Part shown: piece after piece, positions 17,654-62,318 of the stretch
Position numbering within the stretch: position 1 is the stretch's first letter
Layout: every line of letters starts with the position of its first letter
Virus record (IMG/VR): IMGVR_UViG_3300028569_000010
DNA: 64,000 bases
Strand: one strand, 5' to 3'
Source of the DNA: an uncultured virus (IMG/VR IMGVR_UViG_3300028569_000010)
Lineage: Duplodnaviria > Heunggongvirae > Uroviricota > Caudoviricetes
The notes under the pieces: model-generated
What the model saw: the letters and a program-made list of their open reading frames with translations, nothing else
What the model was told of the DNA's origin: nothing
The model's database searches: none
Made by a program: the position numbers and the translations under genes

Positions 17654-17664
17654 AAGGAAATAAA

Positions 17665-18282: not shown

Positions 18283-18285
18283 ATA

Positions 18286-18891: not shown

Positions 18892-18894
18892 AAT

Positions 18895-19749
18895 ATGAAA
18901 ATACTATTAATACAAGAAGCTAGTAGACATAAAGAAAACGTAGTATTTAGAGAGTGCCTTTCTTTAAGAAGGGCTTTTGAATATAATAATCATCAAGCTG
19001 ATGTATGGGGATTAGGTCACGATAATTTTATTCATACTCCAGAGTGGGAAAGTTACGACTTAATTATTAATCTAGAAAACTATGATGAAGCTGGGTGGGT
19101 GCCTAATCTTAGTAGCATACAAACAGTTAAGTGCTTATGGTCTATAGACGCACATTGTAAAGGTATTAATAGTTACTTGAAAACATTTGTTGATGGAAAA
19201 TATGATTTTATACTACAAGCAACACCAGAGTTCCTTGATGAGAACAGTGTATGGATGCCAAATGCTTATGATGACGATATAATAAAGCCACTTAACTTAG
19301 AGAAGAAATACGATGTTGGATTTTGTGGCCACATAAATAATAGAAGAACTTTAATAGATATATTACAAGGTAATTTTAATTTTAGACTAGATGAAGGTGT
19401 TCGTGGTGACAATATGGTTGAAGCTATAAATAGATATAGGATTCATTTTAATGCAAATATTTCTATTGATATTAATTATAGACACTTTGAAACCATTGGC
19501 TGCGGAACATGCCTACTAACAAGTTACAATAAGCATTTATCAACTTTGGGTTTTGAAGATGGTGTGAATTGTATCATTTATAGAAACGCGAGAGAGATGT
19601 TACAAAAAACACAAAAAATATTGGACAATCCAGAACAATTGGATACAATAGTAAGTGGCGGATTAACACTCGCAACAGATCATACATATAAAAAGAGAAT
19701 ACCTTTAATTCTCAATGCTTACAATCATTTCAAAAATAGGAATAAATAA
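18895..19749 (+). CDS. Glycosyltransferase, CgeB-like GT-B
   Basis: YDVGFCG, IHFN..DINYRHFETIGCG, HTYKKRI. Confidence 0.85.
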   Translation: MKILLIQEASRHKENVVFRECLSLRRAFEYNNHQADVWGLGHDNFIHTPEWESYDLIINLENYDEAGWVPNLSSIQTVKCLWSIDAHCKGINSYLKTFVDGKYDFILQATPEFLDENSVWMPNAYDDDIIKPLNLEKKYDVGFCGHINNRRTLIDILQGNFNFRLDEGVRGDNMVEAINRYRIHFNANISIDINYRHFETIGCGTCLLTSYNKHLSTLGFEDGVNCIIYRNAREMLQKTQKILDNPEQLDTIVSGGLTLATDHTYKKRIPLILNAYNHFKNRNK

Positions 19750-43000: not shown

Positions 43001-45615
43001 AATCCTTCTGATGGATCAAAATTATTAAAAGTTACATTATTGACACCAGATAACAACAGGCAGTTTTCAAAAGAGTCAGCTATCTTGCCGTAAAGTGGAT
43101 TATTATTATAACCACTAATAGCTGTCCAATCTATTGTTCTATAATCGGTTGGGTTATTAAATATTGAAGTTGTATTAAATCTTAATCCAAAATTAGAATA
43201 TAAATTTGCACTATGTTTTAAAACACCAGAACTACCGATTAAATCATCATAAATAACTTGCCCACTAATATTATCAAAATTAAAATAGCCATTTAAGAAT
43301 GGTGAGTCTACATATTCTCTAGTAAAAGCAAAATCTTCGAATTCTAATGTACTAAAAGATGAGTTAGATAAACCTTCTGAACCTTTCCATCTTCTTGAAT
43401 AATTTTGCTTAAAAGTTTCTGGAGAATCATAAGCGTGAGGAATTTCTGATATGGTAGATAATCTATTTGGAGTACTTGAAGTAGAACTATTTTCTTTAAT
43501 GTTTGGATATAGAATAAGATTATTTTTTTGATTATACTGTGGTTCTCCAAGCGTGTGCATAGCTAAAGCATTAGATGGCTTATAATTAATAACAATTTGC
43601 ATAGACGATATAGCAGCGCCACTTGGTAGTGGATATATGTCAAGATGTAGCTGCTCAAAGTATGTACTTAATCCATATTCTGGAGATTGACCTAATCTTC
43701 CTATGTCTGGATAAATCTTTAGTGGTATATTATATTCTCTAAACTCTGTTGAATTAACAACATTGGGGGAAAGTTTATAATGATCACCACCTATATTTAG
43801 AGGCTTAGTCTGAGAAAAATATTGAAATTTATCTGACATTGCCTCATTAGAAAAACCTAGTGAGTCTAGGGGAGCAAAACCAGATTCTTGTGGCACACTT
43901 CCGCTACCACCAATATCATTTTGTAGAAAACCACCAACATCAGATGTAACATTTAATAACTTGTCATCACTATACCCAACAATGTCTATGGCATAATCTC
44001 TAGAGCCAATAGATTTTTTAGCCTTAATTCTTAACGATATATTGTCAACAACGAAGAACTCATTTATTGGCGGTAATTTAACTAGCTCGGCAGTCCTAAA
44101 TGAACTACTTAAACTAGCAAAAGCGCCGCCCCTATAAACTAATAATGATTCTAGTGTTTTATGCGTGAATACTAAATGTAACTTACCAGAGTCTGCAATA
44201 GAACTAGATATTAATTCAATATAATCACTGTTGTCATCATTAATAATACTATTAACAAGTATATTAGAAGACGATGTTGTGTTATTTAATATTCTTGTTC
44301 CACTGCTACTTGGCGCAGACCCCCAAACCGTATCAACCTTTGGAAATACATTATTGCTATAACTAGATGGTAATAATACTTGTGGACTTAAAAATCTTTC
44401 TATCCTATCTCCAGTTTTGCGAACTTCAGTATAAAAATTTAAGTAAGTGTCATTTATTATATTTGCTGCACCAAAATTAAATATTTCAATTTCTGATATT
44501 CTTATACTATTAACTGGATTTAATGCCTCTTGCGACCTTGTAGAAAATGGAGAGCCGATGCTTAAATAATCATCATCATCAACAACTACATTATTATTTG
44601 ATATTTTATCATCAAACCCCTCATTAAATCCCGCAGTAAATGGAGCATCATTACTATCTATAACAATATCAAACGTGATAGTATAATCACCATTAGAATT
44701 TAGTATTGGATAATTTAAATCTTGAGTAGCTAATGTTGCATTATTTTTTATTGGCCTAGTTATATATGTTGTATAACTAATTTGATCTGGAGTATTATCA
44801 AAATTAGAATCACCGCGCACATCAATATCTCTATATTGGATTATTAAATTGCCGCTTGGATCTTCAAACTTAATATTTGATATAGTGTATTTATATGGGT
44901 TTTGGTCTGGATCATTAGGACTATAAAATGGGGCAGCTGCCCTAATAAATAATCTACTTTCTTTGGGTGTTAATCTAGGATTTTCTACGACTGCCTTATA
45001 TCTATAATGTCCACCAAGATAAATCGAAGATGGTAGAATATAAGATAGTGTATCGCTTATTGTTCTACCGTCGTTTCTAAAGTCACCAACAAATATGCCG
45101 CCGTTTATACTGTTAAAAAGATTTTCAGTTTGTAATTTTTCATTTACCAATACTTGACCGCTAAGAGAAGTTATTAAATCTTGCACCGGGTACAGTTTTT
45201 GAGTACCGTTGACGGGTGCAGCAAAGAAGTTATCATTATTATTTGCTTGTTCTTCTATATTGTCTAAGAATACATCCCCGCTTATTTTGTCGGCTACGCT
45301 ATTTAAACTAGATGCAGTAGATAAGATAGATTTAGAACTAAGTGTTAGACTTATATTTGGCCTAATAGATGTGCTAGTCAAAAGACTAGAAATAATATTT
45401 TGGGTAATATTGTAATTTTGTTTAGGAATACTAGCACTTGAAATAAGTTTAGTTAAACCTAAATCGCTAATATATAAACCAAATTTAGATGAAAGTGCAA
45501 TTCTTTGATTATAAGACATCTGAACAGTCAAGTCTGCCCCTAAGAAGCTAGAAGCAACTATATTAACTGGGCCTTCGCCGTTTAATCTAGATGAGCAAAA
45601 ACAGAATGTAGGCAT
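34090..45615 (-). CDS. Giant (3841 aa) adhesin-like virion protein with FG-GAP repeats and a LamG-like domain
   Basis: FG-GAP repeats FGYSVA..LVIGAP..AGSVYVY, FGKSVSI..IGSP, FGYSIAL..VVGSP, FGASLDI..LVGAP, FGNSVAI..ISAP; LamG-like segment near 42600-43060. Confidence 0.75.
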   Translation of the reverse strand: MPTFCFCSSRLNGEGPVNIVASSFLGADLTVQMSYNQRIALSSKFGLYISDLGLTKLISSASIPKQNYNITQNIISSLLTSTSIRPNISLTLSSKSILSTASSLNSVADKISGDVFLDNIEEQANNNDNFFAAPVNGTQKLYPVQDLITSLSGQVLVNEKLQTENLFNSINGGIFVGDFRNDGRTISDTLSYILPSSIYLGGHYRYKAVVENPRLTPKESRLFIRAAAPFYSPNDPDQNPYKYTISNIKFEDPSGNLIIQYRDIDVRGDSNFDNTPDQISYTTYITRPIKNNATLATQDLNYPILNSNGDYTITFDIVIDSNDAPFTAGFNEGFDDKISNNNVVVDDDDYLSIGSPFSTRSQEALNPVNSIRISEIEIFNFGAANIINDTYLNFYTEVRKTGDRIERFLSPQVLLPSSYSNNVFPKVDTVWGSAPSSSGTRILNNTTSSSNILVNSIINDDNSDYIELISSSIADSGKLHLVFTHKTLESLLVYRGGAFASLSSSFRTAELVKLPPINEFFVVDNISLRIKAKKSIGSRDYAIDIVGYSDDKLLNVTSDVGGFLQNDIGGSGSVPQESGFAPLDSLGFSNEAMSDKFQYFSQTKPLNIGGDHYKLSPNVVNSTEFREYNIPLKIYPDIGRLGQSPEYGLSTYFEQLHLDIYPLPSGAAISSMQIVINYKPSNALAMHTLGEPQYNQKNNLILYPNIKENSSTSSTPNRLSTISEIPHAYDSPETFKQNYSRRWKGSEGLSNSSFSTLEFEDFAFTREYVDSPFLNGYFNFDNISGQVIYDDLIGSSGVLKHSANLYSNFGLRFNTTSIFNNPTDYRTIDWTAISGYNNNPLYGKIADSFENCLLLSGVNNVTFNNFDPSEGFAFFVRLSPYIDANFQSGIIASKYTANNTLQFLLGYSGGYLYSQSTDNSGNLITVKDSVAYNSYSYPLGVLVTYNSDNSRKLNLYVDNELENYNSWNLKRNTSQGNFIITSGSSPIILGHDTRSSGNFNSFITNCGISNIANIVDGNTILQQKTINVNRFFDSFNAHYNFNDKHHLHSFIDEGVDDWSFGDYRHKDFSSSEFRTLSKRSGYDFIYYNIKNNGSPYSNKTHISLPSGFNANALSYHSQIENDFLRLSLSDAPDNFYSAGIRVNKNLPQGYNFIKDSLMVETVFEHISSGNIIWPNGERGPKLIVSLYTTNKDPSSYSAKNFGLINRGIHYLENKNYIGLLQTGFDFDSFVDESESWSIFPEEKRISEFNHKYFSSDLDKMFIQYDIAYPSGTPYESRLRINSVNVKLNNYISKQQDNNSFIDFVTNGQKYEFNFLDLVVRPHEESFDNLILNVSGGPIYKVDPQVVSLYISSVSGLDQNSIPIYIGGSVGNSFGSDDMLFGSIDPNAINLYISGQYVDNEFLNLHTVGPIQQIYAQNSSMPMVTYDIFNKETSYLPLFVRPSEAEAVILKYSTIFNLYTEVTDLTVTDSYFNLHTTNYFTTYDVSNSLDMRLDGYLDTILKSGERQIIWNGIRPGVNIKIDDNVYASIPVGNEIRGVDLICEGDCSSSGTCIEKGIYTHETQWTEDRCVDGGIFRAKTVYTNPTASGFGNTVGYSGNYYGIKKYEGLVPSAPYFISAKALTGNDNFNLVPPKFEEWEYGTNNNVAFSGTKIISNNRMENAKFGYSVATSKDLLVIGAPNETLIDNGSGVTNAGSVYVYRRLPEPSLNSGTLSSDKTGWVIEDRLTLPSGYVLDYPTLLSPVSPIAGLPIPRTQWNAGQEGRKLGSSLATAINSGIKSYGSNQREIIVAGGPDAEFSRTFDQISTNKIKTCVIVFADEFNPNESTYNNFYMEPMAFFDLELKQIMDQNNVLYKYYADPPLQIENKLLVIQPTGSFSNIYYDNYTRGNYLYQTLIPRSNTKAYLSNKQSIDEDMLRRTIDVFLEAFPPNDQEVHNNIPITIGIYCDNSKSLNRKAVEPLITNFSNWYREYSYASGLTNFYNTPTSGNVYEFFPSFNLAEDWKVMSKIILNNLLDTGRISNNNETFLFAESFGLGSINTNLQEFNFTPSLGGRVYVFEKESGSWNIVQELKNTSDFKYNGFGKSVSISDDSLNVLIGSPYVNEACHMLVYDPEVKDTIYNTLGSWLNYRNKINLLNIYNATSGNQYNKGFHTYGKLSQKEKFDYRQDTTFWGGNLPKEYKTNFIYNYDDIPYTGGEYKGWVLGQINTCRLGWSTAINEDGSVIAFGSPTDSLNRFDDTDLWYGALNTSNQSGLFPSEQYAGSVRVFQSRNYYSHNKVVSFSRFGNVGEESGDIEILGNIFNGGLNTPSYKKLEFSEIEIPKDAGLAFITTPSLDAASDEIISNIKDWLSLGDRTLVLVGNDPIYEDNGKYFQSNEIINKILSKLDSRMRLHPAKNKYEALAENNNCNQINILPSFQPVDITPTTVNYRQNFTGYGAADIRMHVPNHKTLYMPFCDFFNDRCQLPLAHNGDLRASFSVKYESKDRRGRKKLNGATINWARLFKSYKPSDYTSDSSFNNPWKYSSIYNLPNQEPRPLLVAGEYTQPYTLFYPAEPAESGLFPIYQTRTVQLPDLIENNTVYYWDAENVKDYNNQIQFLYNFQSGSIIYNGDFFDPLPSDRFDPIIQGKADIRQFDPVLRPRQIADRQVLCAEEIYTTPDDVGHNSQVALLATVLSESKNNLLGGSQDINIQFYTNLITVNESDVSKLRKNDYQCITPSIIGIIGGWTGRSSFKDGYIESFLAELFFDIDSIQADVQVFTGEIPSYINVCWIPNTKNAQPSDLDIVNIKNWLNLGGKKLIVTFDDSSASALAVRNLSNKLNINTQPVYLNAAGRFASSYDRLNAGENDDIPRFNNDSSVIKSCLSSLNNETIAIDSFYPDSLFDAGFGHSPFTPIQGKYYYQTKDTVKDVITRPFPIHDNEFIDVPAIWEIDGSASIDIPVIQNSGYTIFINYISEFENEILPINIYSPNFSNNPDPNPDDEGNQISFNTSLSNSGRSLLQTSTFTGRARNDFIRINFDTRNGNIGLLNSTNYVPHTHRIVSISGVFHPIGNASFVRRIPRTSFITEIVGQQWLMTYGGRAEYSVTIPAKLRPIMNNNTKYCEDICAYNNANGLVSEFYEPPRSPNGLPAPESFIFYCDKYEIKKNFDFNEGGYLDSPSLISTISCSNKEIEDGPVVAAQEEEHFSVFFNGHKRSNIILISDKSLVQGSCTLNNGLIKSNVINFISSLYPNNAPAELTQRGGKRFNISSKIISPERGSPVRYFHASGLTGLHSAFGGSTTKNTLILNQYSTNLSSINPGSVQRKQKSGKEQEDLENFYGDIVNNNSYIRWGASGVVFEGPDGRKQIVDRSQYSDSINGKIPRTVSKLGKDFIDIEHNDILFSGFVGDLFGYSIALYKNKLVVGSPFAGFSNENSVYNWSSGNSSNLQLSKYGGAGVVYIYENDNSGVNEIGQASRWSFKQKLRPQTINAGQDITNYQSSLSTIGTHNYSSGLLFSSSLHPDKFGASLDIDGDMLLVGAPFHDFSNYVEDIYNSGTAFIRKEFDFQFNIPLHKVTDLGSSQNRILYSGTPVLNRGAVFSYENEINNWQFKTQSWTLKEKLVPQGYNSNLQNYSENNMFGNSVAIERVDRVDAKYNAIISAPSHKYGLNVSSSGIDKAGSIHIYDGMIRNQPPAISNKNMWLNAKIFSDDKDLSEVVIDVDKSKYDKSNIEVISTGIVFTNSEGELYLEGSGLDGNQYGNIENRPYIESVYGQLLQGSKIENGIALFNAGPDQHIKSSGYMLLQVVAPSSAYVYNTLDFYTGSIISSGTRSLNLFNNAGTISGINNSLNIYTSGQGLLPSTLLLRGQGK
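34255..34264 (-). promoter_or_regulatory. TGTGTATAAT promoter-like motif
   Basis: Exact copy of the 3603 motif, inside the 3' end of the giant gene, about 170 nt upstream of ATG 34086. Confidence 0.35.
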
Positions 45616-45624
45616 TAATTGTCC

Positions 45625-48600
45625 TTATAATACAGATGTTCTTCCAAATTTAATATTACCAACATTATTTACTTTTACACCTTGTAACTTTTGTCCTAAG
45701 TCTTCCATCAATTGTTGTTTTAATCCATCAGCCATACTTTGTAGGAATTGACCGCCGTTAATATTTAGGTTTACATCACCCAACTTGTGTGAAACCTCAG
45801 TATTGCCCAACTTACCAACTTGCTCTGAGAAATTCTCCATAAATCCATCGAATCCTGACATGAATTTACCTAGTTGCTTAGAAAGTTTTTGTACATCAAA
45901 ATTAACGTTAGATATATTTCTTTCATTTTGAACAACTTTGTTTTGTGTATCCTGAGTTTGTAATGACTGTGGAGAGCTTGTTAATTGTTTAAATATATTG
46001 GGAATAGACGATGGGTTGTTATTTAATCTTTGTGCATTAGCTGTATATTGCCCATTATTAATAGATCTCAAGAAAGAGAGATTATCACCACGATTTACAG
46101 CACCCCTATTTACTACAAACTCGCCGGGAGTTAACATCGCTGGAACGGTATCTGTTCCCTTTGGAACAAAGTTAATAAGCTGTCCTTTACTAGCATACAC
46201 GATTCCGCCACGACTTCTGTTTTGAGGTTGGTTATTTAATATATCTGTATTTAAACCAGCATTTTGAATTTTTAATTCTGCCGTGGCTATATTCATTTCA
46301 GCGCGTGATACTTCCATAGCCGCCATTTCTGCACCAGTAGCACCGGCTTCACCTAATAATCCACCGTATTCTCTTAATCGCCTATTACTAGCCTCTTCTT
46401 CTTGGGTAGTACCAGCTAAGATTTGTGCCATTCTTGGGTTTTGTATACCTCTTGATCCTAGAGATGCTGTTGCGGAAGACTCTAGTAATCCACCAGCACC
46501 AGCAATTCTTTGACCAAATAGCTCAGTAACTCCAGCCTCTTTCTGTCTTTGTAAATTCTGATAAGCTCCACCTAAAGCCTGTCCACCAAATTGGTTAATA
46601 GCAGCTTGATTGCCAGTACCTATAGCGGCAGTTGCTCCTACAGCAGCCTGTTGTTCAAAAAACTTATCAATATCTCCAGCCAATAGTGATTCTAGAGAAT
46701 CTTTCTCTAGTTTATTTTTCTCTTTAGTTAACTTAAGCTGTTCTTCTTCTGCTGATATTAAATCTCTAATGAGTTTAACTTGATCCTGTTGAGCTTTTTT
46801 GAGATTTTCTCTAATTGCTTCATCTTTGACGCCTTGTTGGCCCGACACTTTACCCTGCAAAGCCTTTTGTTCTAGTGCAGCAAAATTACCACGAATTTGA
46901 TTTAATCCAGCGCGTAAAGATGCGGGATCTGAACCCCTTATATCACCTACGCCAGCAATTCTTCTACCAGCGTTTGCGCTTTCAATTGCCGCTTGTCTTT
47001 TTATTTCTGGAGTGACAGCCCTGCCACCGTATTTAGATTGTATTTCAAGACCTTCTAAGTTTAATGCTATAGACTGACGTTGGGCTTCAACAAAAGATCG
47101 CTCAGACTCAATTCTTTGCTTGTATAAAGTATTTAATTCAGAATTTACCTTTTGCAAATCAGATATCATCTGATTTACCTCTTTAGTCATACCAACACCA
47201 GCCTCATCTAATTTCTTAAGCAAGAAACTATAATCACCAGCAGCAATTTGCTCCCTTTCTTTGTCGCCAATCTCAATATCGCCTAAAGCATCACCAATTC
47301 TTTTACGAGCCTCATCACCAATTCCAGAATCTTTTAACTGTTGATCAACTAATGTACGAAATTTATCTCCTGCTGCTTCTGGACTCATGTTTGTAAATCC
47401 ACCAGCTTTAATGTCCTCTTTTAATTGATCAAAAATGCCACCAGCATTTCTCTGAACTTGTGCTAAAGCTGTAAGATTATCCTTAAATTTTGCAACTTGT
47501 TGATCACTAGCGCCAAGAGATTGCATAGTTCCTGTAACATCATTTAATGCGTTATTGAAATCGTTTTGGCTAATGTTTGCTCCAGCAGCGGTAAGGGCAG
47601 CTGTTAATGTATTAGCAGATTGAGCGACAGCCAAATTGCCAGCTTGTAGCCCAGCGGTAAAATTTGTAACAGAATTTACAGCAGCGCCAGTTACAGAAGT
47701 TACATTTCTCAAACCGAGATTCATTGCTTCAAATTGTTTTCTAGCAATTTCAACTTCTTTAGCGGTATTACCAAAAGCTTCTTTAAGTAATTTTAGTTCT
47801 GCTGGATTTTGATTATAAACCGCTTGTAATTCTTTTGGTAAACTAGCAAAAAAATCAGCAAAATTACCGCCAGCCACAGCTATATTTCTAGCTTGAGCAT
47901 TAATAGCTGGTGCCGCTTCTGATAATACTTTATCTTTATTTTCATTCGCTTTCTTAATTGATTCATCTCTATCTTTTTTCTCTTTGGCTGTATCTTGCGG
48001 TAAACGAGTTGCCATAGATTGAGCATTAGCAACAGATTGTGCCTGTCCAGAAAATTGGTTTAATACTTCTTTTGCACTTTTTCTACCTTCTGATAAATCC
48101 TTAAGAGCTTGGGTAGTCTGTTTAGCTTGGTCTTGCATTAACTTCATTGTATGAGAAGTAGCAGCCGTAGCTTGAGCAAACTGCTGAATGGTTGAAGTAC
48201 TCTGTATCCAACCACCAGTTAAGCTTGATAAAATATCCCTAGTTCCATTTGCAAAATTTTCCAAATTACCAGTAGCATACAATACTATTGCTCCAATTCC
48301 AACTATAGCAGCCGCAGCAATCGCTAATGGTACAACGAGAGAATATAAAGCAGTTGAAAGTCCAGCCAGTGGAGGTATCATTGATGTTACAGATGCTAAG
48401 AATAAAGGCACGATTGCAGCAACTGCCACAATACCACCAGCAAAAATACCACCACTATTAATAATATCTTCTTCAGCTGTTTTTCTAGCTGATAAAGTAC
48501 CAACTAATGCTATATTTCCATCTGCCATTGCCTTGTCATATTCTGCAACTGTTGTGCTAGTAGAATACAAAATACCAGCAGCTGCTGAAAATGCGGAAGC

Positions 48601-51600
48601 GGTAATGGTAGCAACACCAGCAACAGCACCTAAAGAAGAAAACAGTTTTTCAAATCCAACAGAAGAACTAGATATTCCAAAGAATTTTCCGACTTTTTCA
48701 TCTAATGTAGCTCCTACCTTAGCAAAAGTTTCACCTAATTTTTGTGGTATTGTAGCTATATCGCTAAAGCCTTTTATTTCAATACCAGCTACTGATTCTA
48801 ATATAGAAAGAGAACTACTAATAGCTGTAACAGAAGATAATGCGGCACTTGCAATGCGAGTAAACGCATCATCAGTACCACCAGCAGTTTGTATTAATCC
48901 ATTTAAAGCAGCACTAGCGCCAGTAAGAGCTTGACTAAACGTAAACATACTCTTATTAGATTTTTCGCCACCGCCACTGGCTGGTGTGCCAGAAGGAGCG
49001 CCAGCGTCTGGTGTCCCAGCAGGAGTACCACCGGCTGGAGTGCCACCCGATGGTATTGGAAACGGGAATGGAGTATCGCCGCGCCTTCTAGCTTCTGCAT
49101 CAAAACCTGCGGGTTGGCCACCAAATCTATATTCCATTTTTTCTTTAGCTATATCTTTTCTGCTTCTAGCGTCATCTAAAGCATTACGAGAGCTTTCTTC
49201 ATCTTTAGTAGCTTGATCTATGGTGTCAGCTAATCTGCTATAAGCAGTAACTAAAGTATCCATTTCTTTTTCAACTTCTTTTAGCTTTTGAGCAATTACA
49301 AGAGATTCATTTCCAGTTGCTGTTTTTGCTTGTTCTTTAAGCGTTTCTCTAACGTCATATAAATTGCCAATCTTTTCTCCATACGCTCCACCGCCATCCG
49401 AAAACCTAACTCTACCACCCTTATTCAATCCCAAAGCCTTAGTAGCTTTTGCTCTAACAATAAAACTACCAACTGGTAAATTAGCAGGAATACTATCACT
49501 AGTACCAGTTCCCGGCCCCTTGAATACGCTAATACCACCACCACCAGAGAATCCACTCATTCCATTACGGTCAGCTTGATTCATTCTATTTAACTTACCA
49601 TAACCAATTTTCTTAGCAATTTGTGGTGGAACATAAGCTTCACCATTACTTACTAAGGCTGGCACCGTACCGCCAGTTTCAAAACCAAGGCGACCACCAT
49701 TAGCTCTGCTAAAATACTGTAAAGCCATTGCTCCACTATTAGCATTATCTCCCATGCGTATAACAGAGTTTTTATCGTTAATTAACGATGGAGATTTACT
49801 ATAACCGCTTTGTAAAATCCAAGCCGGATCAGTTGGGGCTGGCCAAGTTTCAGGCTTACCGTAAAGTTTAGGATCAATGGCAGCTTGGTTTCTTGTCCAA
49901 TCATCTGGTTTAAGTGGAGTTTTCTTTACGTCACCCCTATTCTTAAAATAGTATTCCCAAACCTTTTTAGCTGCACCGCTTACGCTACTCCTATCAGAAG
50001 TTAACATGGCCCCCTTAGATGTAGCTTCTTCCATAACAGTATCATATAATTTTGGCCCATACCCTTGAGTTGCTTTAGATAATCCAACATAATATAAATA
50101 ATCGCGCATTTTATATGCTGATACATATCCTTCTCTTTGATCGTTCTTAAAGTATGAAGCATTGATTGTATTACCATCAGAACGTAATCCTATTTTACCA
50201 TAATTTTTCTCTTTTTTAGCTGGTACTTCTTCTGATGGTTTTCTGTTACCGTAAAGACCTTTCATTAATCCTTGCATTTGATCCGTAGAATCAGCTAATC
50301 CACCAACAGAGTATGACTGTCTTTGTATTCCAGCATTTCCTAATAATTCATTTAGTGTAGCATCAAGAGTTGAGGATAATACTCCATCAAGCTTATTTGC
50401 ATTTTGTACAAGTGTGGTTAAAAATTCTTCCTTTCCACTATCTTCTATTCTATCAATATATGATTGTTTTAAACCATTATTTAATAAAGTTTGATTTATG
50501 TCTGGATTGAGTGGCTTAAATTCACGCGCTTTTTTTATACCCATAGACTTTACCCACAGACCCAAAGCTTCTTGATGGGCAGTTTCGCTATTGGGTGTTG
50601 TTTCAAGCTTGTTTTTATTGGAACTAATAATATTATTTAGATTAGAAACTTTATAAGATTTACCATATACAACATCAGCACTTGAGTAGCTGCTATTAAG
50701 AGCATCAAAAGCCTCTGAAAGATCATCGTTATCTCCTGTGAATAACTGAAGAACTCGCTCTTTGTATTTTGTGAAACTCTCAGCGTTTCTAGTTCTTAAT
50801 CCATTAATTAGTTGGTGAGTCATTTCGTGATAGAGAGTGCTACTATCACCACCAGTTGAAGATGATCTAAAGGGGTCAGATGTTCTAACTGATATTGAAC
50901 CACGACCAGTTTTCGCGGCTTTACCTTGTATGTCTTGGATAGTTTGTTCTAAAGCCGTAGATTTCAAGGAAGAAACTTTTCCATAGTTGTTTTGCGCAGC
51001 CCCGAGTTCGTCCCATACGGCCCTGGCGGCTTCTGTATCATAGCTAAAACTCCCATCATCATAAGTCTTTACGGGAGTCTTGGTAATTTTATCAGCCTGT
51101 TTTCTTTTTTCTTCTATTAATTTTTTATATCCATATAAATCTTGTTCGTGAGCTTTTGTAAATCCGGCTCCAGATACATCAAGTGATTCTACTCCTCTTG
51201 AAGTCATACCAGTTCTATCAAATTGACCCAAACTTTTTAGATTAGGAACAAAGTCTATAATTTTTGGTAGAGCCAAGTCGATGTTTTCACTAGGCAAACC
51301 AATTAACTTTGTAAAGTCTGCCATATCTTGATAAAGTGAGTCTCTTTTTATTTTGCCAGTAAAAGTGGACAGGAATCTATTTTTATCAAAGGGCTTATCA
51401 TGAGCTTCTCTTACTTTATTCGCATCAATTGACATTGTTTCGTTTTTTGGAGAAGAGTATGTATTATTAAATATTTGTTCAGACGCTTTCTTAAGCTGGG
51501 CGTCTCTTATCTCTCGCTCATAAGCATTAGAAATTCTTTTTGGAAATTCTGTTGTACCAGTTCCAAAGCCAACTTTACCAGCTTTGGCAAATTTTCTAAC

Positions 51601-54600
51601 AGTACCACCACTATTATAACCCATCACATTCTTAAGATAAGTAACAATATTATCTTTAATAGTCGAGGGGCCAGATAGAGTTCTCTTAACGTCGGTAGGA
51701 ACATTTGGATCTATATTAAAATATTTAGCAGCGCCTTGCAATCCTTCTGGAAAATCAAATCCTTTACCCTTAACAGCGCCGGGGCCACCAAGTTGTTGAA
51801 TTATTTGCTCAATTAATCCACCCTGAATTGTCGCATTAGTATTAGCATTTAATCCCTGAAGGGGGCTTTGTGTAACAGGTGATTTGGACTTTCCAGCCGT
51901 AACTATATCAGTACCTTGACTAATAATATTACTAACGCCTTGACTCATAGTAGTGCTAAGTCTTGTAGCTGTAGCTTGATCCATTACTCCGCTAATAACT
52001 CTAACCATTCTTGAGCTAGATAATTTATCAGATTCAATTTTAATATTTTTAGCTGCAAAAGCTTTTCCAAATAATCCAGCAGCACCAAATTCTAGTCCCT
52101 TTCCTCTCAACTTAGTTGTCTGAGCTTTAGCTGATGCCCCTTGGCGTTTTACCTTTTGAACATAAGCTTCTTTTACAGCATCTTTTACCTTTTGTTCTTC
52201 TGGGGTCAATTCTCTTCTCAAGCCCATAATATCATATGTTTTAATCTGATCTACGCCAGAAGCAACAGCGGCCTCATCTCTGGATAAAACTTTAAATATA
52301 TCGCTTCTACTATTTGGGGCCACAATTTCTTTAGCTTCCTGCGGAACACTAACTTGTTCAGATTTTACTTCTTTATCAACAGCGTCCTTAACTTTTTGTA
52401 AAGTTGGAGATAACTGTATTCCATCACCATTAAAAGATAAACCGGGTCTAAAATAAGAAGATGACTTACTAGAATCAACGATGTGTTGTTTGACAGAATC
52501 TTCAGTAACTGGTATATCTATTGGCTCTTTTCTTGATGCATCTAAACCATATATATCTGGATATCTATCACTTATAATTCTAATGAGTTCGTGGGCTGGA
52601 TCTAAGAAAGTATCTCTTTGGAATATATCTCTATTTTTTCTTAGTGAAGTAATTTGCTTAACTAAATTGGGATGAGCTTCCTTAAATTTAGGAGTCATTC
52701 TTGTGAACGGGCCACCAGAAGCGTTTTGTAATATTCCATCTACTTGTTCATTTACCTTACTTGTATTTGCCTGTGTGAATATATCTAAAGCTTGTTGTAC
52801 TAGTGGAACCATCATCCTGCGATTACGCAATTGTGGTTGATTAGATTTAATAGCAGAACCAACCTTTGGCAATACCGCTAAATCTAATTTAGCGTAATCT
52901 TTATCAATTACAGCTTGCCTTGTGGCTGTACCGCTAATACTATCACCCTCAGTATCAGCTGATCTAGCTATATTATATGGAGTTAATCCAGCAGATCTAT
53001 ATCTTTCCATTACGCCTTCTGGATTTTCATTTTCTGCTTTAGATATGACAACTGGGGCATCTTTTTCCATTACGGCAAATCTTCTTCGACCAGTAGCACC
53101 CTTCTCAATTTCAGCAATTCGTGAATTAATACCAGTTTGTGATGGACTATTAGCAGATGATATCATCATCTCTGGTAAAGCTAATTTAATTAAATCTCTT
53201 CTAAATGACGCCGGATATTCCCCATATCTTGAACCATGCTCTCTACCTTGCGATCCGCCATCTAAAGATAAATCTGGGGCAAGAGCAAATAATAAATCTT
53301 TGTGGGTTGCGTCTGGATATTTTTCTCTTACCTTTTCAAGCAATGTACCTACAGCACTTTCAGCGTGTCCTCTAGTTAATGGAGAGGCGGCACCTGGAAA
53401 TTGACCTTTAGCACTAGCAAGTTCTGGTAATTCTTCTAGACGCTTTCTTCTTATTTGAAAGCGTGGAGTGCCTGCTTGGTCAGTTTTTTCACCAAGAGTC
53501 ATGACCTTACCTTTATTGGTACGATCTTCTGTTGTGCCAAATTGTGATATTAGTGACGCTGTTTGTAAACCATAGTCTGAATTCAAACCTTCGGTAGTTC
53601 CTGTTTCTCTACCATATAAAGTAGGATCTTTTTGAAGGTTGCGTTGTCTTTCAAATAACTTAACTAATTTTTGTTCATCTTCAGTAGAAGAATCTTTTAC
53701 GTAAATTCTATCAGCCATTCCCATATAGTCTAGCTTAGACTCTTTTAGAGTGGTTGTCAACGACATTACTTGATCAACATCTTTTAAATCATCTGGATGT
53801 AAAATTTGTTTTCTAGTTGTTTTCCTCAATGTGGCATTATCGTTAGCTCCACGACCAGTAGCGACACTACTTTTGCGATTAGCAGCAGCACCAGCCATAA
53901 CGCTAAACCTGCCCAATGCTCCAGACTGCCTTGCTTCTCCAGCTAGTTTAGATAACTTAATGCCATAATCAGCTTCAGACTTAGCATCTAATAACTTCAT
54001 GCCTTCAGCTACTCTTGCTGCATTTTTCTTATCTCTAAGAACGTCAGTATCTATAATTCCAACTCTGCGTTGAGCAACACCACCTTCTTCAAATCTTTGA
54101 ACAATGCCACCTGAATTTAAACCAATTTCTTTTTTAAGATTAGGATCTATTTGATAAAGAATAGTGCTACCTATATTAACTGGAGGTTTATCGTCTATAG
54201 ATGATGTAAAACCTTTTGGCAAACCAGAGTATTTTATTGTATGTCTTAATCTTTTTGCTAATATTGTTTCATCTGATGTTGGGTCTTTCCTAAATCTAAC
54301 TTCTATAGGATCTCCCCCGCCAACAAAATCTAAAGGATCATATTTATTTTTTGTCTTTCTATATCCAGATTTATTTTCTACTTTGGTTAAGTATGCTCCG
54401 ATAAAATCTTCAAAAGCTAAACCTTTTCCAAATGAGAATTCTTTGGTTCTTCCAGATTCTGTGAATTTTGTTTTAGCGTTAGAAGCTATTTGTGAAGCAA
54501 AAGTTTTTTTGGGATTGCTTGATTCGTTATAATATTTTTGAATTTTTTCTTCATCAATAGTTTTTCTATCAATATTGCCTAATATTTTATCTTTCTGATT

Positions 54601-56196
54601 TAACTCTTTATATCTAAGCATATAAGATTTAATAGGCTTACCGCTAGGAGCATCAGAAGCTTTTTCTACTGTTATAGGTCCACCCTTAGCTCTATTATTC
54701 ATTTTTACCAAATTACCAGCACCATACTTTTGTACAGCTGCACGATTCATAACAACTTCACCGGGAGTCAACATCGCCGGTACGCTATCTCTATTACCAA
54801 CACCGGGAACCATGCCACCCTTTTCAAAACCCAGCACTCTACCACCATTACTAAATCTACCAGAAGCCATTCCACGCGGTATAGAAGTCAAGAAACTACC
54901 TATGCCACGACTGATGTTAATAGCCATCATTGCGGTAAGAAGTGGAATAACTGGTGTTAAAGCTTCACCAATCTTTATAAAAGCAGAGGCAAGATTTAAT
55001 GCAGTATTAACGAATAATTGGAAACCGCGACTTTCTGTTACGCCTCTAATAAAAGCAAGAAACTCTTCTTTTACTTTGGTGATACGAATGGCTAGTGCTT
55101 GCTGTGCGGTTATGGCGTTTGTTGTTAAACCATCGCCAGCTTTTTGGGCGACATTTAATGCTTGTTGAGCAATAGCAAATTGTTGTAAGAGTGGAAGAAC
55201 TTTACCAATCTGTCTAAATCCGCCTAACTCTTCAGCAATGCGTATAAACGTTAAGTCTCCTTCTCCTAAACCATTTAATGCAGCACTTAATCTTTTAACT
55301 GCTTCAAATGGGCCAACGAATCTACCCTCTAGATCAACTAGTTCGATACCGAACTGTTTTAAGTACTCAATAGTCTTTGGTCTTTGTATACGTGTAAAAA
55401 TTGTTCTTAAGCCAGTACCAATACTCTCTGCACTTTCGCGCGTAGTAGCTCTTACGCTAGTAAAGAGGGCGAGAAGTTCATTAAGATCACCACCAGATGA
55501 TTTAAACACGCCACCAGTTCTTCTAATAACGTCAATTAAGTCAGCAGCTTCAACGGCAAATGCACCAGCGACGGCATCTATAGAAGATAGTTGACCTTCT
55601 AATGCCTGAACACCTAAACCGAACTGTGCCAAAATAGCAATAGCACCTTCAGTAGTTTCTGTAATACTATCAAAGTTAGGGGCTAATGCTGCCTTGGCTA
55701 ATGTTCTTAAAGCAATAGCGGTCTCGTTAGCAGATAAACCGGCCTGCTTTAGAATAGTAGATACTTCAAGCAAAGATTTAGACTCTACGCCCAAACTAGT
55801 AGCAAGTTCAGTTATAGTAGAAGTTAAACCTTTTAACGAAGCTATACTTTGATTACTTACCTGTGCAACTTTAATTAATTGTCTTTCAAATTCTATAGCA
55901 TCTCTAATAGCGCCAGCTAAACCGTTAGTAAATAATCCTACCGCCCGTGTGGCTATAGAAAATGAAGCGAATCGTTTTAACGAAACACCAAAAGCTGTTC
56001 CCATACGTTCTGCCGCAGTTGTGGCATCGTTGGTAGCAGCCCTAATTTGATTTATTTGTCTAGTAGCAGACGCAGCATTCTGTACATTGACGGGTATATT
56101 TACACCCGCCAATTGGCTTTGAATCTGATTTACTACTTGACGAATATTACTTGGTGCTTGTAGTTGTAATTGGGCAGTCAAAACAAATCTGGACAT
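45625..56196 (-). CDS. Tail tape measure protein with inserted enzyme-like domains (3523 aa)
   Basis: N-terminal TP901-type TMP core (FERQLIKVAQV..QAGL..ESIGTGLRTIFTR), Ala/Gly-rich hydrophobic helices near 48250-48900, coiled coils, D[ST]VPAMLTPGE.V motifs; follows the tail tube and chaperone genes. Confidence 0.92.
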   Translation of the reverse strand: MSRFVLTAQLQLQAPSNIRQVVNQIQSQLAGVNIPVNVQNAASATRQINQIRAATNDATTAAERMGTAFGVSLKRFASFSIATRAVGLFTNGLAGAIRDAIEFERQLIKVAQVSNQSIASLKGLTSTITELATSLGVESKSLLEVSTILKQAGLSANETAIALRTLAKAALAPNFDSITETTEGAIAILAQFGLGVQALEGQLSSIDAVAGAFAVEAADLIDVIRRTGGVFKSSGGDLNELLALFTSVRATTRESAESIGTGLRTIFTRIQRPKTIEYLKQFGIELVDLEGRFVGPFEAVKRLSAALNGLGEGDLTFIRIAEELGGFRQIGKVLPLLQQFAIAQQALNVAQKAGDGLTTNAITAQQALAIRITKVKEEFLAFIRGVTESRGFQLFVNTALNLASAFIKIGEALTPVIPLLTAMMAINISRGIGSFLTSIPRGMASGRFSNGGRVLGFEKGGMVPGVGNRDSVPAMLTPGEVVMNRAAVQKYGAGNLVKMNNRAKGGPITVEKASDAPSGKPIKSYMLRYKELNQKDKILGNIDRKTIDEEKIQKYYNESSNPKKTFASQIASNAKTKFTESGRTKEFSFGKGLAFEDFIGAYLTKVENKSGYRKTKNKYDPLDFVGGGDPIEVRFRKDPTSDETILAKRLRHTIKYSGLPKGFTSSIDDKPPVNIGSTILYQIDPNLKKEIGLNSGGIVQRFEEGGVAQRRVGIIDTDVLRDKKNAARVAEGMKLLDAKSEADYGIKLSKLAGEARQSGALGRFSVMAGAAANRKSSVATGRGANDNATLRKTTRKQILHPDDLKDVDQVMSLTTTLKESKLDYMGMADRIYVKDSSTEDEQKLVKLFERQRNLQKDPTLYGRETGTTEGLNSDYGLQTASLISQFGTTEDRTNKGKVMTLGEKTDQAGTPRFQIRRKRLEELPELASAKGQFPGAASPLTRGHAESAVGTLLEKVREKYPDATHKDLLFALAPDLSLDGGSQGREHGSRYGEYPASFRRDLIKLALPEMMISSANSPSQTGINSRIAEIEKGATGRRRFAVMEKDAPVVISKAENENPEGVMERYRSAGLTPYNIARSADTEGDSISGTATRQAVIDKDYAKLDLAVLPKVGSAIKSNQPQLRNRRMMVPLVQQALDIFTQANTSKVNEQVDGILQNASGGPFTRMTPKFKEAHPNLVKQITSLRKNRDIFQRDTFLDPAHELIRIISDRYPDIYGLDASRKEPIDIPVTEDSVKQHIVDSSKSSSYFRPGLSFNGDGIQLSPTLQKVKDAVDKEVKSEQVSVPQEAKEIVAPNSRSDIFKVLSRDEAAVASGVDQIKTYDIMGLRRELTPEEQKVKDAVKEAYVQKVKRQGASAKAQTTKLRGKGLEFGAAGLFGKAFAAKNIKIESDKLSSSRMVRVISGVMDQATATRLSTTMSQGVSNIISQGTDIVTAGKSKSPVTQSPLQGLNANTNATIQGGLIEQIIQQLGGPGAVKGKGFDFPEGLQGAAKYFNIDPNVPTDVKRTLSGPSTIKDNIVTYLKNVMGYNSGGTVRKFAKAGKVGFGTGTTEFPKRISNAYEREIRDAQLKKASEQIFNNTYSSPKNETMSIDANKVREAHDKPFDKNRFLSTFTGKIKRDSLYQDMADFTKLIGLPSENIDLALPKIIDFVPNLKSLGQFDRTGMTSRGVESLDVSGAGFTKAHEQDLYGYKKLIEEKRKQADKITKTPVKTYDDGSFSYDTEAARAVWDELGAAQNNYGKVSSLKSTALEQTIQDIQGKAAKTGRGSISVRTSDPFRSSSTGGDSSTLYHEMTHQLINGLRTRNAESFTKYKERVLQLFTGDNDDLSEAFDALNSSYSSADVVYGKSYKVSNLNNIISSNKNKLETTPNSETAHQEALGLWVKSMGIKKAREFKPLNPDINQTLLNNGLKQSYIDRIEDSGKEEFLTTLVQNANKLDGVLSSTLDATLNELLGNAGIQRQSYSVGGLADSTDQMQGLMKGLYGNRKPSEEVPAKKEKNYGKIGLRSDGNTINASYFKNDQREGYVSAYKMRDYLYYVGLSKATQGYGPKLYDTVMEEATSKGAMLTSDRSSVSGAAKKVWEYYFKNRGDVKKTPLKPDDWTRNQAAIDPKLYGKPETWPAPTDPAWILQSGYSKSPSLINDKNSVIRMGDNANSGAMALQYFSRANGGRLGFETGGTVPALVSNGEAYVPPQIAKKIGYGKLNRMNQADRNGMSGFSGGGGISVFKGPGTGTSDSIPANLPVGSFIVRAKATKALGLNKGGRVRFSDGGGAYGEKIGNLYDVRETLKEQAKTATGNESLVIAQKLKEVEKEMDTLVTAYSRLADTIDQATKDEESSRNALDDARSRKDIAKEKMEYRFGGQPAGFDAEARRRGDTPFPFPIPSGGTPAGGTPAGTPDAGAPSGTPASGGGEKSNKSMFTFSQALTGASAALNGLIQTAGGTDDAFTRIASAALSSVTAISSSLSILESVAGIEIKGFSDIATIPQKLGETFAKVGATLDEKVGKFFGISSSSVGFEKLFSSLGAVAGVATITASAFSAAAGILYSTSTTVAEYDKAMADGNIALVGTLSARKTAEEDIINSGGIFAGGIVAVAAIVPLFLASVTSMIPPLAGLSTALYSLVVPLAIAAAAIVGIGAIVLYATGNLENFANGTRDILSSLTGGWIQSTSTIQQFAQATAATSHTMKLMQDQAKQTTQALKDLSEGRKSAKEVLNQFSGQAQSVANAQSMATRLPQDTAKEKKDRDESIKKANENKDKVLSEAAPAINAQARNIAVAGGNFADFFASLPKELQAVYNQNPAELKLLKEAFGNTAKEVEIARKQFEAMNLGLRNVTSVTGAAVNSVTNFTAGLQAGNLAVAQSANTLTAALTAAGANISQNDFNNALNDVTGTMQSLGASDQQVAKFKDNLTALAQVQRNAGGIFDQLKEDIKAGGFTNMSPEAAGDKFRTLVDQQLKDSGIGDEARKRIGDALGDIEIGDKEREQIAAGDYSFLLKKLDEAGVGMTKEVNQMISDLQKVNSELNTLYKQRIESERSFVEAQRQSIALNLEGLEIQSKYGGRAVTPEIKRQAAIESANAGRRIAGVGDIRGSDPASLRAGLNQIRGNFAALEQKALQGKVSGQQGVKDEAIRENLKKAQQDQVKLIRDLISAEEEQLKLTKEKNKLEKDSLESLLAGDIDKFFEQQAAVGATAAIGTGNQAAINQFGGQALGGAYQNLQRQKEAGVTELFGQRIAGAGGLLESSATASLGSRGIQNPRMAQILAGTTQEEEASNRRLREYGGLLGEAGATGAEMAAMEVSRAEMNIATAELKIQNAGLNTDILNNQPQNRSRGGIVYASKGQLINFVPKGTDTVPAMLTPGEFVVNRGAVNRGDNLSFLRSINNGQYTANAQRLNNNPSSIPNIFKQLTSSPQSLQTQDTQNKVVQNERNISNVNFDVQKLSKQLGKFMSGFDGFMENFSEQVGKLGNTEVSHKLGDVNLNINGGQFLQSMADGLKQQLMEDLGQKLQGVKVNNVGNIKFGRTSVL
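48965..49060 (-). repeat. Low-complexity GTPA-type peptide repeat linker in the TMP
   Basis: PSGGTPAGGTPAGTPDAGAPSGTPASGGG; locally GC-rich. Confidence 0.7.
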
Positions 56197-61773: not shown

Positions 61774-62318
61774 TATAATACTTTCCTAGACTCTATTTCT
61801 TTTATACGTTTATTATAGCACATTTGAAATAAAATACGTGCTTGATTATATTCAAACATTAATTTTTTAAAATCCTCAAATTTTATCTGTCTTGGGGTGT
61901 TCGTACTATCTAGTATCATTATTTTTGCAGAATCTTCTAAAGATGCATCTTTACTAGACACAAGAGTATTTATTAATGTGTGATAAGTATTATCATCCAT
62001 AGACAATCTATAGTTATAATTAGTTTGCCAACCATTTTTAAGTATTTCTTTTTCACGCTCAATTAATAACTCTTTAATTTGTTTAGTAATTGGCGCATTT
62101 AGGTTTAAATTATTTTTGTGAGATTCATACCAAGCGTTGCCCTTTTTACTATTAACATACTCTTCTAGATCTTTTTCACTATCAAAAACTTTTATATCGT
62201 GATTAGTAGAAACTTCTCTACCAAAATATAAATTACCAAAAGATAATATTTCTGAAGAAGTATTATGTATTACTGCGTACCAAATATTTTCAGCTTTGTA
62301 ATTATACATTAATAGCAC
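61773..62318 (-). CDS. Hypothetical protein, possibly fibre-assembly/DUF4376-like
   Basis: Follows the repeat-rich fibre-like gene; C-terminal ILDSTN..F..LMFEY pattern. Confidence 0.5.
   Translation of the reverse strand: MLLMYNYKAENIWYAVIHNTSSEILSFGNLYFGREVSTNHDIKVFDSEKDLEEYVNSKKGNAWYESHKNNLNLNAPITKQIKELLIEREKEILKNGWQTNYNYRLSMDDNTYHTLINTLVSSKDASLEDSAKIMILDSTNTPRQIKFEDFKKLMFEYNQARILFQMCYNKRIKEIESRKVL

Follow-up and report, generated by a model that had tools for sequence, protein, structure and literature searches.

In a 64,000-nucleotide stretch (hereafter the window) of the uncultured virus record IMGVR_UViG_3300028569_000010, a giant tape measure protein of 3523 amino acids (aa), taken from the list of open reading frames (ORFs; 45625..56196, minus strand, as are all features of this protein given below), carries an internal cassette that we regard, with moderate confidence, as a two-domain unit composed of a divergent HIGH-family nucleotidyltransferase and a P-loop kinase-like domain, borne by the virion and likely entering the host. 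The cassette contains a conserved module of 520 aa (aa 707-1226, 52519..54078), in which a P-loop, kinase-like domain (aa 707-917, 53446..54078, model residues 1-211) is followed by a HUP-fold transferase domain of the HIGH family (aa 925-1127, 52816..53424, model residues 219-421) and a helical tail (aa 1128-1226, 52519..52815). The host protein of this module is a tape measure protein according to its PhageMin_Tail domain at aa 127-312 (55261..55818), which exceeds the curated Pfam cut-off (E 2.3e-23; 83.6 bits as compared to 33.2), and according to a PHROG scan, in which six of the seven families matched at E<=0.1 are annotated as tape measure protein. The original prediction, made from the letters of the sequence, had proposed a HIGH-family nucleotidyltransferase with a degenerate P-loop as a tape-measure cassette, and this proposal is borne out by the model fold, by profile matches and by conserved motifs.

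The three peptides quoted in that prediction all lie in one minus-strand frame of the 3523-aa ORF. ISGTATR, put forward as the second transferase motif, was located at aa 1087-1093 (52918..52938). To assess conservation, 49 copies of the module were aligned locally, 46 of which fall outside the window's own lineage (window, P0002 and P0004); both S1088 and R1093 are kept in all 46. The peptide proposed as the HIGH motif, FPGAASPLTRGH, is likewise present (aa 933-944, 53365-53400), but its register had to be corrected. That is, the canonical GxFxPx[HT]xGH pattern is read as G935-A-A937-S-P939-L-T941-R-G943-H944 (GAASPLTRGH, aa 935-944, 53365..53394), and because this register starts at G935, the motif phenylalanine is replaced by A937 and F933 is not the motif residue. 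Relatives read GGFxPxTxGH at this place. Alanine instead of the motif aromatic is confined to the window, P0002, P0004, L006 and L007, with P0004 in addition carrying a glycine to methionine change in the HIGH motif. The remaining positions are strongly constrained: G935, P939, G943, H944, S1088 and R1093 are found in 46/46 copies outside the window's lineage, T941 in 42/46 and T1090 in 44/46, and PxTxGH and ISGTxxR are each at least 90% conserved. The family consensus, KIGxxxGGFxPxTxGH and GISGTxVR, corresponds to the standard version of both motifs in this superfamily.

The occurrence of this motif pair is beyond chance, since residue shuffling of the protein never reproduced it and since each motif occurs a single time in the six frames of the window. 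Precisely one P.[HT].GH and one IS[SGA]T..R were found there, both in the tape-measure frame, in canonical order and 148 aa apart, and among 20000 shuffles the first motif appeared in 0.35%, the second in 1.7% and both in order at a distance of 90-220 aa in none (0/20000). Of the 56 module columns in which the other copies show at least 90% conservation, 47 are unchanged in the window copy. The motif residues in these columns are all kept apart from G772 and G774 of Walker A; among the retained residues are T941, G943, H944, R990, R999, S1088, T1090, R1093 and K775. Two distant copies, L020:3001-4482 and L021:3001-4143, read P.T.AH rather than P.T.GH, and in one of the two the first glycine of Walker A is missing as well; these copies constitute another, independent lineage whose nucleotide motifs are altered.

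Structure prediction places both motifs where a HIGH-family enzyme has them. A single-sequence AlphaFold run was uninformative (predicted local distance difference test score, pLDDT, 38.8), and a run supplied with a 36-sequence alignment returned the 520-aa module with a pLDDT of 90.7 and a predicted template modelling score (pTM) of 0.86. In this model, strand E225-229 and helix H236-253 flank P939-L-T941-R-G943-H944, and ISGTATR lies just ahead of helix H384-392. The comparison with NMNAT and PPAT that had been suggested as a check yields a predicted Rossmann-like HUP fold with Z scores of 11-13 to solved structures of both enzymes. Absence of this fold, which the original prediction had named as grounds for giving up the idea, is thus contradicted, because a high-confidence model superposes on NMNAT and PPAT. 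A Foldseek search of the PDB ranked NMNAT1, NadM and many PPATs first, with a probability of 1.00. In a second look with VIA, 174 chains reached Z>=8; the 50 best are without exception PPAT or NMNAT (Z 11.4-13.0, root-mean-square deviation (rmsd) ~3.0 Å) and align over 143-168 residues, from model residue 222 to 415-421, so that nearly whole targets are covered. A VIA search independent of Foldseek returned 24 representatives at Z>=8, and all of these are HIGH-family enzymes: NadM at 12.7, archaeal NMNAT at 12.3 (155 of 164 residues) and PPAT at 11.8, followed by TmcAL (11.0 and 10.3), FAD synthetase (10.3) and NadD (about 10) and, lower, by NadR (9.6 and 8.9), ATP sulfurylase (8.7) and MJ0951 (8.5). 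Among predicted viral structures in BFVD, 22 matches were obtained at E<=0.001, nearly all of them phage proteins labelled 'cytidyltransferase-like'. On the strength of the model, aa 925-1127 thus appear to be a genuine, very divergent HIGH/(T/H)xGH nucleotidyltransferase.

Sequence profiles point in the same direction. When the PDB was searched with profiles, MJ0951 (3gmi) was matched at E 2.8e-6 over the ISGT region, with its N-terminal motif aligned at -0.6 bits, and 9x6f at E 5.3e-4 over the whole domain (chain 9-157); alignments running through both motifs were obtained for the RibF-like 3op1 (E 0.013) and for the Methanocaldococcus jannaschii NMNAT 1f9a, with many PPATs ranking after these. 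ISGTATR aligns with the equivalent motif in 3gmi, 9x6f, 3op1 and 1f9a. With a transferase-only profile, 21 of the 23 PDB matches at E<=1 are HIGH-family nucleotidyltransferases. In single scans of 36 members, PF16581 (HIGH_NTase1_ass) was detected in 32 (best E 2.3e-7) and PF01467 (CTP_transf_like) at E<=1 in 13 (best E 0.0037), while the PHROG 'cytidyltransferase' families 395 and 3041 were matched by 10 and 7 members, respectively (best E 9.9e-6). NCBIfam gave scattered weak matches per member to generic adenylyl/cytidylyltransferase, NMN/NaMN adenylyltransferase, CoaD and NadR models. In ten relatives scanned singly, PF01467 covers model positions 2-132 of 133 and PF16581 spans the ISGT helix and beyond; the best PF01467 score in the six-frame search amounted to 17 bits. 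Since fold and motifs agree with the HIGH family whereas scores stay below curated sequence thresholds, the transferase represents a divergent, unnamed branch.

To determine the extent of this branch, all of 1.84 billion representative proteins were searched with HMMER at a threshold of E<=0.001, which retrieved 78 relatives, 50 of them at E<=1e-30. Nearly all matches fall within proteins of 3000-7000 aa. The 520-aa module is present in 60 of the 78, most of which are giant tape measure proteins, and is lacking in the other 18, whereas the N-terminal tape-measure segment of the window protein is common to 66. Pfam detected PhageMin_Tail in 9 of 11 giant relatives scanned, and the remaining two look N-terminally cut. 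Loci encoding the module comprise 3 viral and 16 metagenomic ones. An alignment-based scan of one genome per prokaryote species yielded 151 stretches matching the pattern and no relative among them, and a profile search for free-standing relatives of 261-917 aa, which depends on shared words, returned only the partial protein P0003. The sequence of the 820-aa cassette taken alone, searched entire and in pieces, drew blanks in Pfam (E<=10), PHROGs (E<=0.1) and NCBIfam (E<=10), gave a single irrelevant match (E 1.8) in a phmmer search of the PDB, and matched nothing in the annotated phage collection by tblastn or megablast. The module family is a divergent branch within the HIGH nucleotidyltransferases that has 78 representatives and is missed by current family models. 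Within its helical C-terminal region, for which the model predicts helices H414-452, H470-490 and H493-505, the conserved residues are R1126, P1131, R1186, P1213 and Y1216.

The domain ahead of the transferase had been suspected to contain a decayed GxxxxGKS loop within VMAGAAANRKSS (aa 766-777, 53866-53901), and the relatives confirm this suspicion: GxxxxGK[ST] occupies the same position in 46 of the 49 copies. Intact copies mostly read G[VA]AGSGK[ST], and the three exceptions are the window and P0002 (GAAANRKS) and P0004 (GAAGNRKT). In the window, the loop G769-A-A-A-N-R774-K775-S776 (aa 769-776, 53869..53892) departs from GxxxxGK[ST] in that the glycine preceding the lysine is an arginine. 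The changes G772A and G774R occur in the window's lineage alone, K775 is invariant, and the changed loop is also seen in the close relatives L006 and L007. The model builds the domain around sheet strands E2-9, E57-63, E85-91, E103-108 and E124-128. The VIA search was carried out with the entire 520-residue model, in which single domains score low, and it returned two kinases, namely the zeta toxin 6epg_B (Z 7.2 over 161 residues, rmsd 4.1 Å) and the adenylate kinase 6ln3 (Z 6.2 over 128 residues). ESM Atlas leads were to the AAA_33, APS kinase and Zeta families at 0.82-0.84. A PDB profile of this domain gave matches local to the Walker A of UvrA-type ATPases and one glucokinase (E 1.7), and NCBIfam matches of single members were weak and went to TsaE and to nucleoside/nucleotide kinase models. 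From the model and these matches, we consider aa 707-917 to be a P-loop, kinase-like domain, the kinase assignment being moderately supported.

A further invariant element of this domain is the RxxGxIDxD strand at aa 710-718 (54043..54069), about 50 aa before Walker A. R710, G713, D716 and D718 are present in 46/46 other copies, and the segment coincides with model strand E2-9, the first of the P-loop domain. It may be a Walker-B-like acidic strand placed before Walker A. The invariant IDxDV (aa 715-719) had also raised the idea of a HAD phosphatase, which was dropped because of the ~50-residue distance to Walker A and because the model makes this segment the first strand of the P-loop domain.

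Both domains are maintained by selection. The ratio of nonsynonymous to synonymous substitution rates (dN/dS) was determined against two close relatives, which are 93% and 89% identical (dS 0.39-0.88), and amounts to 0.077 and 0.088 for the whole module, to 0.111 and 0.084 for the P-loop domain and to 0.045 and 0.080 for the transferase domain. Thus, purifying selection acts on both domains, including the P-loop domain with its altered Walker A, and because dN/dS is low in both, the altered loops are stable and selected rather than the onset of general decay. These values also bear on a reading in which the module of the window's lineage is a pseudoenzyme, that is, a non-catalytic folded spacer or nucleotide-binding plug serving tape-measure length, assembly or channel formation. 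In favour of such a role, both nucleotide motifs are altered in the window lineage only (G772A plus G774R in Walker A; phenylalanine to alanine in the HIGH motif, with glycine to methionine in P0004), and copies of this lineage match no family model. However, a dN/dS of 0.045-0.11 over both domains indicates more than conservation of length, the residues enumerated above, from T941 and H944 to R1093 and K775, are all retained, and the module is missing from 18 of the 78 related proteins, which argues that it is not needed for tail building. We judge a purely structural role to be quite improbable.

If the module is an enzyme, its acceptor has to be sought by comparison with characterized HIGH-family members. 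With NadM and archaeal NMNAT (1f9a, 1m8f, 2qjo) and with CoaD (1o6b, 6ccq, 3x1k) it has the HUP fold in common as well as (T/H)xGH and ISxTxxR motifs in the same order and at similar spacing. In contrast to these enzymes, it shares only 10-19% identity with them, scores below curated model thresholds, and is embedded in a 3523-aa virion protein with a P-loop domain before it and ~100 aa of helices after it. NAD-type, CoA-type and TmcAL-like acceptors are tied, and the conversion of NMN to NAD is our leading guess.

According to this guess, which takes up the NAD pools named in the original prediction, the transferase would be an NMN/NaMN adenylyltransferase that in relatives is partnered by a nicotinamide-riboside-type kinase and that is carried in the virion against NAD-depleting defences. 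The best whole-domain sequence match in the PDB, 9x6f, fits such a function: 9X6F is Bas30_86, the NadR-like NMNAT-ribosylnicotinamide kinase of the phage NARP3 pathway, which counters Sir2-HerA and restores NAD+ together with a PnuC-like transporter, as described in PMC13464706. Like the module, Bas30_86 (9X6F/9X6H) combines a HIGH transferase and a P-loop domain in one phage polypeptide (ibid.). Likewise, PMC7824862 describes phage HIGH transferases for NAD synthesis that are free-standing and have a P-loop kinase or a Nudix domain fused to them. NadM (12.7-13.0) and archaeal NMNAT (12.3) head the VIA rows, and the NCBIfam models for NMN/NaMN adenylyltransferases were hit by 4, 3, 1 and 1 of the 36 members as compared to 1/36 for CoaD. 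Nevertheless, PPATs are tied in Z (11.4-12.5), and although 9x6f is the best whole-domain sequence match, NadR chains reach only Z 8.9-9.6 as compared to 11.8-12.7 for PPAT, NMNAT and NadM. Moreover, Bas30_86 is a free chain of 357 residues in which the NMNAT precedes the kinase, whereas the module has its P-loop domain first and sits inside a tape measure protein; the Walker A is decayed and the motif phenylalanine is an alanine. Bas30_86 works with a PnuC-like transporter gene, whereas neither a PnuC-like nor a NAMPT-like gene was found among the 41 ORFs of the window, an incomplete genome, that were scanned with Pfam, and PnuC (PF04973) and NAPRTase/NAMPT (PF04095) were each seen in 0/2 related fragmentary records, which are 32-38% complete. 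Judged by its domain order and its Walker A, the module is not a NadR. Residues binding NMN could not be mapped on the transferase, and an NMNAT alone would be unable to rebuild NAD+ from ADP-ribose and nicotinamide, as we reason from the pathways laid out in PMC13464706. On balance, we rate an NAD+-producing enzyme as a possible but rather unlikely identity.

The same fold scores accommodate an adenylyl- or cytidylyltransferase for another small molecule, either PPAT-like, converting 4'-phosphopantetheine to dephospho-CoA, or acting on a sugar, polyol or flavin phosphate, for which the kinase-like domain would perform the adjacent step in relatives. The first motif position is a threonine in the window and in 42/46 other copies, giving TxGH, which we take to be the PPAT-type variant of the motif. 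PPATs account for 13 of the 23 PDB profile matches at E<=1 and for most of the top 50 VIA rows (Z 11.4-12.5, 143-154 of ~157 residues), where they lie within 1 unit of NMNAT and NadM, and the matching phage families are annotated just as 'cytidyltransferase'. On the other hand, PPAT sequence matches extend mainly over the N-terminal motif, the NCBIfam coaD model TIGR01510 was matched by one of 36 members (E 0.025) and not by the window copy, and no biological rationale is known for an injected enzyme of the CoA pathway, which leaves this assignment unlikely as well.

A third comparison concerns the helical tail. TmcAL/UPF0348 proteins (5y0n from Bacillus subtilis, 5y0r from Thermotoga maritima) and MJ0951 (3gmi), which presumably belong to one family, show the strongest local similarity to the module, located in the ISGT helix region, and TmcAL resembles the module also in having a helical C-terminal region after the transferase (Z 10.3-11.0 over 220-224 residues). 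The module could hence form an acyl- or phospho-adenylate on or for RNA, such as a tRNA base or a 5'-phosphate end, with the tail binding RNA and the kinase-like domain of relatives preparing the end. The strongest sequence signals, i.e. MJ0951 and PF16581 in 32/36 members, agree with this view, as do the superposition of 5y0r (Z 11.0, 224 residues, model 222-510) and 5y0n (Z 10.3) over transferase plus tail and a weak match of the P-loop part to Pnkp1 (4xrp). TmcAL itself acetylates C34 of tRNA-Met from acetate and ATP, as stated in PMC11109946. However, including the extra 70 helical residues leaves Z at or below the transferase-only matches, with an rmsd of 4.7-4.9 Å, and because the added residues do not raise Z, the tail match may reflect generic helices. 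Furthermore, PF05636 (HIGH_NTase1) was matched by 1/36 members (E 0.05), the N-terminal motif region of the module has no significant alignment to 3gmi, and GGFxP is closer to NMNAT and PPAT than to the N-terminal motif of 3gmi (-0.6 bits). A TmcAL-like activity therefore appears very unlikely to us.

For the two-domain cassette as a virion-borne enzyme, the following course of events can be proposed. With its PxTxGH and ISGTxxR motifs, the transferase would bind ATP (or CTP). The nucleotidyl group would then go to an oxygen of the acceptor, which would itself be phosphorylated or carboxylated. In relatives, the domain with intact Walker A presumably supplies or consumes the intermediate, so that kinase and adenylyltransferase act in two steps, in the manner of NadR (kinase first, adenylyltransferase second) or CoA synthase. 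In the window lineage, phosphotransfer has probably been lost or changed because two Walker A glycines are gone, with the P-loop domain kept under selection. As a segment of the tape measure protein, the cassette belongs to the virion; it would enter the host with the DNA and act ahead of all phage gene expression. Such delivery is most likely, judged from the tape-measure context and from the precedent of phage P23-45, and catalysis and its timing are inferred from fold, motifs and context.

Several points weigh against this interpretation. In the ten relatives scanned singly, no curated cut-off was reached (PF01467 at best 19.7 as compared to 21 bits, PF16581 23.0 as compared to 26.7), and the window copy as well as L006 and L007 match no Pfam, PHROG or NCBIfam model even at loose thresholds. 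The structural model rests on an alignment in which relatives bearing canonical motifs predominate, and the kinase assignment rests on matches of Z 6-7 and on the Atlas leads. The motif aromatic is an alanine in the window lineage, and in Bas30_86 a K10A/F11A double mutant lowered NAD+ regeneration (PMC13464706); by our count, K10 and F11 would belong to the GKF in the motif of Bas30_86. With two glycines gone from Walker A, it is doubtful that the window lineage uses a two-step mechanism. Finally, a globular block of 520 aa is sterically awkward inside a tail tube, and its delivery, folding and activity are predicted. The losses in Walker A and at the motif aromatic argue for a changed or reduced activity in this lineage.

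The closest precedent for an enzyme built into a tape measure protein is gp96 of Thermus phage P23-45, a likewise giant protein of 5002 residues with a cytoplasmic enzyme, namely a fused RNA polymerase that transcribes pre-early genes at the start of infection, as reported in PMC10770324. There, the enzyme is N-terminal and its activity has been shown, whereas the module described here is internal, fenced by linkers and swappable, with a predicted activity. The polyvalent proteins of phages and conjugative elements likewise unite enzymatic domains of unrelated kinds in a single polypeptide, injected or part of the virion, that acts earliest in infection (Iyer et al. 2017, PMC5512222). Their nucleotidyltransferases are of the Pol-beta type, unlike the HIGH type of the module, and the main text of this article contains 0 occurrences of 'tape measure', 'adenylyltransferase' or 'HUP'. 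The proteins of PHROGs 395 and 3041 and the cytidyltransferase-like BFVD entries (from cyanophages, Atu_ph07 and uncultured phages) share the fold of the module (probability ~1.00 for the BFVD matches), but are free-standing or differently fused, and the window copy matches neither PHROG. A literature search of titles and abstracts retrieved no paper on an adenylyl- or cytidylyltransferase embedded in a tape measure protein. Thus, free-standing phage HIGH fusions and injected polyvalent proteins are known already, and what is added here is a lineage whose non-canonical Walker A is under selection.

Where phages counter defences that deplete NAD or are directed at other metabolites, the means described to date are expressed genes (NARP1-3; PMC13464706). 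If the cassette is what we propose, an enzyme of this class would be built into the tape measure protein and would be in place as soon as infection begins. Likewise, the virion RNA polymerase of P23-45, the single experimentally shown cytoplasmic enzyme fused to a tape measure protein (PMC10770324), would be extended to metabolic enzymes and to a swappable architecture. It is tempting to go further and view the tape measure protein as a vehicle for a ready-made nucleotide-cofactor enzyme, which would make NAD+ (or an adenylylated cofactor or RNA end) before phage gene expression and thereby answer NAD-depleting or similar abortive defences, with the kinase half turned to a selected, non-canonical role and with cassettes exchanged at the linker, so that the tail tube becomes a reconfigurable cargo bay. 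We consider this extended scenario doubtful.

The swappable arrangement is evident from the linkers and from the order of cassettes. Linkers of the form GG[RIT]V..F..GG occur six times and bound cassettes of the tape measure protein (54814-54846, 54079-54111, ~51577-51618, 49669-49698, 49387-49419 and 46180-46209). Those of the GGxxQKFxxGG type are found in the window at aa 451, 696, 2167, 2260 and 3330, with a variant near aa ~1527-1530. One of them, GGIVQRFEEGG (aa 696-706, 54079..54111; identified by regular-expression match), lies immediately 5' of the module, and a GG-containing linker of this type precedes the 520-aa module in 54 of the 58 copies that align from the module start. Recombination may use the GG linker as a joint, or else the linker may be a structural hinge. 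Just after a GG linker, D[ST]VPAMLTPGE followed by V[VM]NR.AV was noticed at aa 470-480 (54757-54789) and at aa 3349-3359 (46120-46152), with a looser copy of D[ST]VPAMLTPGE near aa 2179; the motif matches phrog_35029, a family without assigned function, as well as tails of several tape-measure PHROGs.

The cassette that carries the 520-aa module contains a second module between the same linkers (aa 1227-1526, 51619..52518), which ends in E..DFP..[DE]xKRT. This second module is present in 46 of the 78 relatives, either before, after or without the kinase-transferase module, and cassette order is shuffled among the 78, the two modules varying relative to each other and to other cassettes. At its end (aa ~1455-1526, 51619-51834), I[EQ]G..[LIF]E, DFP.G and PT[DE].KRT are invariant among 9 copies, a pattern that looks like the core of a PD-(D/E)xK nuclease; a PDB profile search with aa 1227-1526 gave 0 matches. 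In cassette 1, FEDF ... DPLDF ... IEVRFRK at aa 595-637 (54286-54414) was read by eye as E..D..ExR, an arrangement that may represent a second nuclease-like core; Pfam and NCBIfam were blank for this region. Cassette 3 (aa 1541-2164) contains an HExxH site, HEMTHQ, at aa 1790-1795 (50812-50829) and, about 250 aa further on, QGYGPKLY at aa 2044-2051 (50044-50067), a stretch that we take to be reminiscent of acetyltransferase motif A. Pfam gave no match to this cassette and a phmmer search of the PDB returned only irrelevant ones. Hence, one cassette, that with the kinase-transferase module, has a confirmed enzyme fold, and enzymes in the other cassettes are suggested by motifs alone. Towards the C-terminal third of the tape measure protein, hydrophobic segments of membrane type are found at aa 2518-2645.

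The surroundings of the tape measure gene resemble those in related viruses. In 3 related viral loci, the giant ORF comes after four ORFs of 301-374 aa, and a comparable upstream row is seen in the window (ORFs of 316, 385, 344, 108 and 287 aa); family scans of the window assigned none of the neighbouring ORFs to a family. A plus-strand ORF of 160 aa at 52922-53404, opposite the transferase, is taken as spurious because the minus frame there has a dN/dS of about 0.08. Directly downstream of the tape measure gene lies a second giant ORF of 3841 aa (34090-45615, minus strand) with FG-GAP repeats (E 4.3e-21), which matched no other family in the window scans. The window is otherwise clearly of phage origin in a Pfam scan, which detected a primase, a dNMP kinase, a split DnaE-type polymerase and many glycosyltransferases. 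The polymerase (4799-8936, plus strand) is divided into an ORF with PHP and DNA_pol3_alpha domains (4799-6379) and one with finger and HhH domains (7377-8936), and an RNase T-like exonuclease ORF (6372-7052) sits between the two. Glycosyltransferases are encoded by at least five ORFs at 9257-19749 (plus strand), together with two ORFs for FkbM-type methyltransferases, a run that is unusual for a phage and suggests elaborate glycan or DNA/virion modification. At 62302-63963 (minus strand), a protein of 553 aa carries seven RCC1 repeats together with DUF285 repeats, and its PHROG neighbours include tail proteins.

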